This document shows positions 27,905 to 33,692 of a DNA stretch of 64,000 nucleotides, one piece after another. The notes beneath the pieces were generated by a model, which ran no database searches, was not told the origin of the DNA, and worked only from the letters and a program-made list of their open reading frames with translations. A program made the position numbers and the translations under genes. This DNA is from Ignavibacteriota bacterium (lineage in GTDB: Bacteria > Bacteroidota > Ignavibacteria > Palsa-1295), in contig CAWBEI010000003.1 in the NCBI GenBank assembly GCA_963787835.1, positions 384,001-448,000 of the forward strand, read 5' to 3'. Each line of letters opens with the position of its first letter. Within the stretch, counting starts at the first letter, position 1.

Positions 27905-28309
27905 TCACCAAATTGTCAATTCAAGCCCATCGACGTATCCAAAATGGCGGTCTTTGGTTGCCAGCGCGATCTCGTTTTGCAGTGCGATCGCGGCAATCCA
28001 AATATCATTGTCAGGAATGGGCCGACCGATTTGCTTCAGCTTGAACCGTATTGTTCCATACCAATCGGCAGTCTCCTCGTCGATCCCGAGTACTTCAACA
28101 TTTCTGAGAAAATGATGAAGCCTCCGGATATTCGATTCGACCCGAATGGAGTTATAGGCTCCAAAATAAAGTTCACCCAACACGGGAGCGGGAATTAAGA
28201 TTTGATTATGAACGAAGATATCCTCCTGCAAAGGAAGATCGCCGATAATATCGATCAGGCAATTGGAGTCGAGAAGTAGTTTACCAGCCTTCGGGGTCGA
28301 TACGCTCAC
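27905..28309 (-). CDS. vapC: VapC PIN-domain toxin (start uncertain)
   Basis: LLDSN, GELYFGA, IPDNDIWIAAIA, LATKDRHF. Confidence 0.85.
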   Translation of the reverse strand: MSVSTPKAGKLLLDSNCLIDIIGDLPLQEDIFVHNQILIPAPVLGELYFGAYNSIRVESNIRRLHHFLRNVEVLGIDEETADWYGTIRFKLKQIGRPIPDNDIWIAAIALQNEIALATKDRHFGYVDGLELTIW

Positions 28310-28514
28310 ATTCTTCCTCAATCGCTTTCTTCATGGCTTCGGCTTCTTCCTGAGAGATGATGCCACGATATTTTTTCATTTCATCCCAAGACAAACCTTC
28401 CGGAAATTTGGAAACAGTTAATCTGCGTGCGAATTTAAGTACACGCTCCTGCTGATCGGGCCGAAGGTGGTCGATCTCTTGCAAAAGCTCGTGATGTATT
28501 TCTGCTGCAGACAT
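28281..28514 (-). CDS. putative antitoxin (DUF2281-like)
   Basis: 77 aa upstream of and overlapping vapC; QERVLKFA..L and ERIDPEGW end. Confidence 0.75.
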   Translation of the reverse strand: MSAAEIHHELLQEIDHLRPDQQERVLKFARRLTVSKFPEGLSWDEMKKYRGIISQEEAEAMKKAIEEECERIDPEGW

Positions 28515-32370: not shown

Positions 32371-32730
32371 AAAATAAAAAGCGCTTCGGCGTCATCGTGT
32401 GTGGTGAGAGTTGGTCCTCCCTAATTTGTGAAACACTACGAGACCTCCGAAGCGCCCCTCTCGTTCAATATGCCCTGTGGTCAGCAGGGCAACTTTGGTA
32501 GCTTCGAACCGTGAGCTATGAGATTTACTCGTGCTCTCGGTTTGGCTCAAAAATCAGTTTTCAAATAGATCCGTCGATCGCGTCGGCTGTCAACGCATTG
32601 CTTAAATGAACAGCCGCTAAATTCAGGAAGGTTTCCAAACGAGGGCTTGATTTTCAGAGTGTTGATGCTTACATAAAAGTACCGAAAGAGACCTCATAGC
32701 GACCGAAGGACGGGGCGTGTGCCCGATTAA
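32371..32730 (-). ncRNA. candidate large structured non-coding RNA (6S-sized rod plus 3' domains)
   Basis: TATATTTG promoter (32737-32744), nested helices, terminal stem plus U-tract, no minus-strand ORF of 60 aa or more. Confidence 0.5.
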
Positions 32731-32916
32731 CTTTTACAAATATAATACAATTATTTTGCGATTGCTTGAAATGTTGGCGCTGGGCGGGTTTTCCATGACC
32801 AAACCCCCGAATAAATGAACGTTGGGGGAACCGGGTAGCTATCATTTTGGCTTATACGCGCTTGCTAAAGGGCTTCCCGGTTTTCTTTTGTATTATAGCG
32901 CTTTTGCATTTTCATT

Positions 32917-32991
<75 letters not shown>

Positions 32992-32993
32992 AT

Positions 32994-33094
32994 AATCTGA
33001 ACCTGGATTTCGCTGATTATTTGGATTTCGCTGATGAATATTAGAAGTTCATCAACGAAATCATCTTCAAATCAGCGAAATCCAGGTTCAGATT
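32994..33094. repeat. 101-bp palindromic element with 25-bp perfect arms
   Basis: aatctgaacctggatttcgctgatt (32994-33018) / aatcagcgaaatccaggttcagatt (33070-33094), internal direct repeat of ggatttcgctgat. Confidence 0.85.
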
Positions 33095-33095
33095 T

Positions 33096-33692
33096 TTATT
33101 TTTGCTCCTCCTGACCAGTATCGGAAGGTACCGGTTCCGATTGATCCACCGTTGCGCCATAATGCTTGCTATACATGTCATACCATTTGGTGACAGCCGC
33201 ATAGTTTTGCAGATGATTGGGTCCGTAATACGAGTATTCAACGCTGTTCTGATCGATAAACCTGTCATCGAGCACATGAAGCAATAACGCGGTCGAGCGA
33301 TAGACTTTCCAGCGGTCTGGCGCCAAAAGCGCTCGCGGCTCCTGGAAGGAAACGATCCAATCGGCACCAAGCTTTCGTGCGTATTTTTCCATCATCGCGA
33401 CCACATCTTCGGATTCTTCCGCTTGCACAACGATTGTCCCGATCACGATCGCGCTGCGCGGCATGATCGAATCCGGCATCGGCTCGTGATACGTAAGGCT
33501 CACAGAGTCATTGACAGCCGGTACAACGAATGGTGTCGAACTTTGCAAAATGACAGAGTCATGATCGCTTGATTTCAATATCTCCTTTGCTGGGTGTTCC
33601 AACGTAAAATACTGGGCAAATCCGGCCATCGGTGCTATGAGAAGCATACCTGCTATGGCGATGAACGATCGAAATTCCTTGAATTTCCACAT
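33096..33692 (-). CDS. secreted hypothetical protein
   Basis: Signal peptide ending GFA-Q; AGAGGA RBS; ARKLGADWIV motif. Confidence 0.75.
   Translation of the reverse strand: MWKFKEFRSFIAIAGMLLIAPMAGFAQYFTLEHPAKEILKSSDHDSVILQSSTPFVVPAVNDSVSLTYHEPMPDSIMPRSAIVIGTIVVQAEESEDVVAMMEKYARKLGADWIVSFQEPRALLAPDRWKVYRSTALLLHVLDDRFIDQNSVEYSYYGPNHLQNYAAVTKWYDMYSKHYGATVDQSEPVPSDTGQEEQK

Follow-up and report, generated by a model that had tools for sequence, protein, structure and literature searches.

Locus and folded part

The window, by which we mean the whole 64,000-nt stretch of Ignavibacteriota DNA that was analysed, carries a tRNA-Pro(CGG) gene on its plus strand and, between this gene and gcvP, a minus-strand region in which an RNA of ~360 nt had been predicted. 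A real RNA gene does lie inside that region; its conserved and folded part is the 3' end and not the 360-nt rod that had been drawn. We describe a new, family-restricted structured RNA, smaller than first described, whose conserved part is a rod of ~80 nt (32381-32459) with a U-tract, preceded by hairpins at 32471-32491 and 32500-32547. The features are, in window coordinates:

32917-32990, plus strand: tRNA-Pro(CGG), Rfam match, a linked neighbour outside the RNA
32737-32744, minus strand: distal housekeeping-type promoter box TATATTTG, which reads as a -10 TATATT or as a Bacteroidota -7 TAnnTTTG
32609-32636, minus strand: ECF-sigma-type motif GGAAACC-N-TGTT, from the consensus across homologs
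32554-32565, minus strand: boxA-like element TTTGAAAACTGA, the 3' half of this genome's rRNA boxA (clade A)
32500-32547, minus strand: hairpin P0 with AGC/GCU closing, variable in sequence and conserved in fold
32471-32491, minus strand: hairpin P1 with a conserved UGACCA loop (clade A)
32447-32459, minus strand: AGGGGCGCUUCGG, 5' arm of the closing helix, invariant in 30/30 homologs
32433-32446 with 32390-32402, minus strand: inner helix, covarying in the arm-swap and clade B tests
32422-32432 opposite 32403-32405, minus strand: asymmetric loop, UUCACAAAUUA opposite ACC, in the core interior (32390-32446)
32406-32421, minus strand: small hairpin GGGAG-GACCAA-CUCUC, in the core interior
32381-32389, minus strand: CCGAAGCGC, 3' arm of the closing helix, invariant in 30/30 homologs, pairing probability 1.0
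32371-32380, minus strand: U-tract, predicted intrinsic terminator tail, with a U-rich tail in 30/30 homologs

The original prediction had named five helices, a 7-bp hairpin, the TATATTTG box and the U-tract, and the corresponding complementary sequences are present; the 374-nt region also folds better than its shuffles (0 of 100 matched its energy, z -3.5). That fold signal comes from the 3' part: z was -5.3 for 32371-32560, with none of 200 shuffles as good, and -2.1 for the proposed 186-nt rod folded alone, which 5 of 200 shuffles matched. Within the 361-nt transcript a pairing probability of 0.00 was obtained for the three helices on the outer side of the rod (32693-32700/32515-32522, 32681-32685/32537-32541 and 32648-32654/32550-32556), because 32500-32547 prefers the local hairpin P0, with which they are mutually exclusive; values of 0.7-1.0 were reached by the 7-bp hairpin, the 9-bp closing stem and the rod's inner helix (32610-32616/32584-32590). 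The rod region is also barely conserved, its identity to 14 same-genus homologs being 52-63% vs. 51-54% for shuffled controls; for the same homologs identity was 87-97% over the core and 79-95% over 32460-32515. The 5' segments CUUCGG and GGGCA, proposed to switch pairing with the downstream stems, are absent from the four closest relatives. The suggestion of a new ncRNA class survives for a core of ~80 nt that is extended by variable 5' segments, and falls for a large rod.

Hallmarks of tmRNA, RNase P RNA and SRP RNA are missing from the region, as had been said, and all three RNAs are encoded elsewhere in the genome. Rfam gave no match over the interval either: searches there (E up to 10) and at the loci of 16 homologs (E up to 5) yielded nothing credible, and the sole gathering-level match in the whole window was tRNA-Pro. 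Rfam 15 holds no family for this RNA, and a literature search, with most subscription journals outside its scope, found no paper on an RNA of the Kapabacteria lineage; it could still be present in motif collections that Rfam has yet to take in.

A perfect 25-nt inverted repeat lies directly 3' of tRNA-Pro (32994-33094), with a similar word just upstream of tRNA-Pro(GGG), and is the cause of spurious Rfam microRNA matches. Beyond it a minus-strand ORF (33096-33692, 198 aa), matching nothing in Pfam or NCBIfam, adjoins the RNA in 21 of the 30 loci. Elsewhere in the window, two adjacent short minus-strand ORFs at 27905-28514 (77 and 138 aa) look, judged by eye, like an antitoxin and a PIN-domain protein. 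The tmRNA (C3:311840-312339, 500 nt, ARAGORN) and RNase P RNA (C3:317721-318158, 438 nt) of this genome are both long, paralleling the long 6S RNA and the long 5' extension of the present RNA in the same genus.

Conservation, covariation and distribution of the core

The core consists of an invariant AGGGG and an invariant 9-bp closing helix, inside which come an inner helix of variable sequence, an asymmetric loop whose strands measure 7-12 nt and 3-4 nt across homologs, and a 5-bp hairpin with a GACC loop; the U tail follows. Among 30 aligned cores 48 columns are invariant, in stems and loops alike, and the best-kept stretch in DNA searches was 32371-32511. Pairs of the closing helix never vary, so that covariation is silent on that helix, and a plain alignment gave 0 of 19 compensatory pairs with RNAalifold because the inner helix is shifted by one register between the two clades of homologs (A and B). 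Covariation of this helix shows up only in tests that take the clades into account. When the arms of 27 distinct arm pairs were swapped, none of 20000 permutations reached the cognate mean, and the same held for permutation within clades. In clade B (n = 11 sequences) 99.2% of cells were paired, vs. 33-61% in slid controls, and four pairs had changed on both sides, in nine such cells, counts of compensatory change that are inflated by related sequences; no shuffle of 500 reached the cells and the score, and 68 of 500 reached the pair count. The small hairpin showed one G-U to A-U and two G-C to G-U changes among 35 cores, with one pair broken in two of them; such G-U-type changes would favour the minus strand as the transcribed one. 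Changes in loop length are non-triplet, which disfavours a peptide reading.

Upstream of the core the two clades diverge. Of the 21 distinct P0 versions in clade A, 20 fold with z below -2, and all 10 distinct clade A versions of P1 form the stem, with changes on both sides; clade B has a single unrelated hairpin at a place similar to that of P1. The 5' hairpins were probably added lineage by lineage, and they may be trimmed within the AU-rich linker. The predicted length of the RNA is ~130-145 nt in one clade and ~190-360 nt in this genus.

DNA searches matched 31 of the 34 other genomes of the family and one of 26 genomes of other families. With a covariance model, 32 of the 35 family genomes gave one strong match each (92-116 bits), i.e., the RNA is single-copy. 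The three negative genomes, searched with the neighbouring tRNA-Pro(CGG), returned tRNA-Pro(UGG) only; since this neighbour is missing there too, the RNA locus is probably unassembled in these genomes. Outside the family the model found only weak matches (at most 26.6 bits), in 5 of 134 other genomes of the class and 1 of 150 of the phylum; four of the five class matches were inspected, two being plain terminator hairpins and two lying inside ORFs. When genomes, metagenomes and viral contigs were scanned by pattern, the matches listed scored either above 80 bits (at least 45 loci, none viral) or below 20, and the 120 viral loci among the matches listed included none above 20 bits. True matches made up 15 of the 80 genome records among the matches listed; seven of the 15 are labelled Candidatus Kapaibacterium and the others Bacteroidota, Ignavibacteria, 'bacterium' and, once, Alphaproteobacteria. 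The name Kapabacteria is used here on the basis of such database record titles. The hosts form one family of peat and soil bacteria.

Predicted promoters and transcription

From its position, the distal box would place a start at ~32731 and yield a primary transcript of ~361 nt, in this subclade only. The four closest relatives carry a box like TATATTTG at 253-302 nt before the core, and 9 of the 12 clade B loci have one at 45-63 nt; because the housekeeping-type box thus differs in position between clade B and this subclade, the 360-nt form can be no more than a primary transcript specific to the lineage. The Bacteroidota consensus TAnnTTTG is that given in passages of PMC9723704.

The proximal motif, [GA]AAC-N-YGTT, is found at every one of the 30 homolog loci, its spacer being constant within each clade at 18 nt (clade A, 18/18) or 16 nt (clade B, 12/12), and here would start a transcript of ~233 nt at ~32603. 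We take it, from its consensus, to be an ECF-sigma promoter. Defined on the homologs and afterwards tested on the tRNA/tmRNA and protein genes of this genome, [GA]AAC-N16-18-YGTT preceded 12 of 48 tRNA/tmRNA genes vs. 5.1% of 1336 protein genes, about a fivefold enrichment (p ~4e-6), which suggests an alternative sigma factor for stable RNA genes. Twenty-one sigma-family genes of the genome scored over the model cut-off.

In clade A, 17 of the 18 loci have the boxA-like element 84-107 nt ahead of the core; none of the 12 clade B loci has it. Similar words precede the 16S and 23S rRNA genes here; the pattern has low specificity, with 39 matches genome-wide, many in repeats. The B. subtilis boxA consensus, as quoted in passages of PMC13753749, is AUGAUCUUUGAAA. 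The 16S (C4:406884) and 23S (C6:~169351) rRNA genes are apparently unlinked: after the 16S gene come a terminator-like hairpin and what seems to be a protein gene, and the 23S gene has a long leader of its own with a boxA-like word. Upstream of many tRNA genes and of the 16S gene, and in the window at ~34317, lies repetitive sequence: heptamer arrays (TTCATAC, TTCTTAA and AAGTAAG types) adjoin many of the tRNA genes, and a dispersed repeat with ATTGAAAATTGA recurs across the genome.

At the 3' end, the predicted U-tract terminator is missed by a simple terminator scan because the loop is long. Transcription of the RNA is plausible: eight RNA runs, from eight studies and among 17 runs listed, hold contigs over the core, seven of them short low-depth contigs over 32371-32518 and one covering the flanks too. 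Since these contigs, which carry no strand, end or level information, come from runs chosen for holding core words, the absence of gcvP or rod-region cover in them is uninformative.

Proposed function of the RNA

The locus very probably yields a free RNA, a stand-alone ncRNA that would be transcribed from its own promoters, one of housekeeping type and one of ECF type shared with tRNA genes, and would end at the U-tract. Given an RNA, we lean slightly toward a protein-binding mode; the fuller proposal, that this family-wide, single-copy RNA is a protein decoy whose ~80-nt 3' rod binds and holds a partner through its invariant surface, stands in our estimate at about even chances. We read the surface as one of protein contact because stems and loops are both invariant and no standout mRNA complement exists in this genome.

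A base-pairing sRNA under ECF-sigma control, whose loop words (GUUUCAC, GGGAGGACC and AGGGG) would act as seeds on a single mRNA or a small number of mRNAs with the help of an RRM protein, keeps a modest chance. An ECF-type promoter and a terminator of its own, both predicted, the invariant single-stranded words and the three RRM proteins encoded in the genome would all suit such an RNA, but its stems are as invariant as its loops, and nowhere else in the genome are the 10-nt and 13-nt invariant words matched by a perfect complement. The invariant words AGGGAGGACC and AGGGGCGCTTCGG occur once each in the genome, on either strand. Against the 5' regions of 2318 long ORFs of this one genome, the best duplexes were at the shuffled level for two of the three segments; the 5' lead segment reached -30.4 vs. 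-24.8 to -27 for five shuffled queries, the latter run on one third of the genes.

Quite unlikely, in our view, is a cis element of the tRNA-Pro(CGG) locus (a leader, an attenuator or a processing signal) or a DNA-level site in place of a free RNA. The tRNA gene lies downstream on the same strand in 19 of the 30 loci, within 62-211 nt, and clade A has the boxA-like element; yet conservation of the RNA is undiminished where the tRNA is inverted upstream (6/30) or absent from the fetched flank (5/30), and 14 tRNA-Pro loci from other families have no homolog of the RNA alongside. Nor is derivation from its neighbour borne out, the likeness to tRNA-Pro(CGG) not being significant: this tRNA ranks 8th of 94, and 45 of 400 shuffles score as high. 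For a DNA-level site one could cite GTTTCAC in the core, which we take to resemble half of a parS site; the locus has no full parS palindrome, the covariation tolerates G-U, and the parS reading was dropped.

Among known RNAs, 6S RNA (RF00013) is one of those that come closest, and an atypical 6S RNA had been one of the suggestions for the ~360-nt RNA with its 186-nt rod. Such an identity is very improbable, and orthology to 6S is refuted. In its favour, Rfam 6S models matched in none of the 35 family genomes (RF00013 being without a match in this one), no RNA lies behind zapA, and rny is missing: RNase Y scored over the cut-off in 0 of 35 family genomes vs. 25 of 26 other genomes of the class. 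In those other genomes 6S was matched in 7 of the 26, six times between zapA and rny; here zapA (C5:110086-110364) ends 2 nt from a convergent gene. However, the family has a separate 6S RNA. A search with a profile of 19 zapA-rny RNAs turned up a candidate (E 0.0035), located on contig C5, in which both halves of the class 6S motifs flank an insert of roughly 270 nt. DNA searches recovered its homologs in 18 of 34 genomes of the family, four of these homologs scoring 55-66 bits with a class-level 6S model (R2), and with the class-level model 18 of 20 family genomes outside the genus score 32-73 bits. An argument that the family's 6S is missing, and that the present RNA replaces it, was dropped once this 6S had been found. 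It lies outside the window (C5:~119740-120150, minus strand), away from zapA, and is missed by Rfam; in this genus its apical insert of roughly 270 nt brings it to about 400 nt in total, and in other genera it measures 200-290 nt.

Nor does the present RNA look like 6S in detail. The full transcript is not predicted to form the 186-nt rod, which is also unconserved, and the core lacks both the near-symmetric bubble and the long apical arm: the bubble has 14-19 nt opposite 14-17 nt in 19 class 6S RNAs vs. 7-12 opposite 3-4 nt here, and the arm, which mimics the -35 region, corresponds to a 5-bp hairpin. The AAGAAC/GUUCUU helix of 6S is absent. Six cores scored 3.7-8.4 bits with R2, which is noise level; R2 gives this genome's own long 6S only 9.5 bits and is insensitive to large changes in length. 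A profile of the bubble-flanking columns matched none of 35 cores and 6 of 700 shuffles, and is likewise insensitive, having also missed the long 6S of this genome.

What the RNA shares with 6S is a rod with an internal loop and a U tail, a closing stem formed by its 5' and 3' ends, a single copy, and a promoter and terminator predicted from sequence. It also shares the order CAC-(A/U)n-GGGAG...CAC with the class 6S RNAs, i.e., an A/U-rich loop strand followed by GGGAG and a partner strand followed by CAC. It may thus work like 6S while failing 6S membership. According to passages of PMC8876501, B. subtilis 6S-1 can do without its apical arm in vitro, E. coli 6S cannot, and an engineered 78-nt derivative of 6S-1 (6S78) binds polymerase about tenfold more weakly and still makes product RNA; passages of PMC4211561 describe bacteria with two 6S RNAs. 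Second copies such as B. subtilis 6S-2 belong to the same comparison. The short 6S-Flavo RNA of Bacteroidota (RF01685, ~105 nt) is likewise short; it was set aside, having no match in this genome and different motifs in its published alignment (PMC2864571, supplement 5).

Scarcely any probability attaches to a riboswitch or switchable leader of gcvP. Here the gene begins 215 nt downstream of the RNA on the same strand, and 10 of the 30 loci have it on that side and strand; in 2 it sits upstream in divergent orientation, and in 18 the flank lacks it (two of these with less than 600 nt of downstream flank). No glycine riboswitch matched in the window (Rfam), the proposed switching segments are unconserved, and the pairing probability of the closing helix is 1.0.

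Several other systems were compared. CsrB/RsmZ and Y RNAs sequester proteins by short loop words on a stable scaffold, and a likeness exists in short loop words (GGA, and GACCA in two clade A loops); neither CsrA nor Ro60 (a TROVE protein) was found in this 98%-complete genome, and a CsrB/RsmZ-type decoy and a Y RNA were both rejected on that account. The word AGGGAGGACC resembles what we take to be a T-box word, less its UGG; a T-box leader was rejected in the absence of an Rfam match and of UGG, and with downstream genes that vary. A ribosome decoy acting through the Shine-Dalgarno-like AAAGGGAGG was discarded too, as no start codon follows and GGAGG is rare before genes. GGAGG preceded 30 of 1683 long ORFs, vs. 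4 in a control interval, so that use of the Shine-Dalgarno sequence is rare. Chlorobi-1 (RF01696) and Flavo-1 (RF01705) are likewise lineage-restricted structured orphan motifs of the same wider group; neither matches here by Rfam, the first rows of their published alignments look unrelated, and those rows show several copies per genome vs. the single copy of the present RNA.

Returning to a protein decoy, its known partners other than polymerase are missing, since CsrA, Ro60/TROVE and Hfq (also not found in this genome) are absent. The partner we would name first, though only tentatively, is RNA polymerase, which might act together with an alternative sigma factor; one of the three RRM proteins is the next candidate. 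More specifically, and less probably still, the RNA could be a natural minimal decoy of RNA polymerase, a second 6S-like RNA of ~80-90 nt titrating a form that ordinary 6S does not bind. It would have arisen, with loss of the apical arm, when RNase Y disappeared from the family and the 6S gene changed its place; its target might be, e.g., the ECF-sigma holoenzyme that would transcribe both this RNA and many tRNA genes, so that stable-RNA synthesis would come under feedback control.

Near-invariant, single-copy RNAs with expression signals of the stable-RNA type usually belong to core machinery. Here an uncatalogued RNA family is confined to a lineage known in this study from metagenome assemblies alone, the same lineage in which RNase Y was lost and 6S RNA relocated. 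At ~80 nt the core is short enough to synthesize, and assays with polymerase, sigma factors and RRM proteins would need no culture. Were it an ordinary base-pairing RNA, it would add one further orphan motif; if it binds alternative-sigma polymerase, control of the 6S type would extend beyond housekeeping sigma factors.
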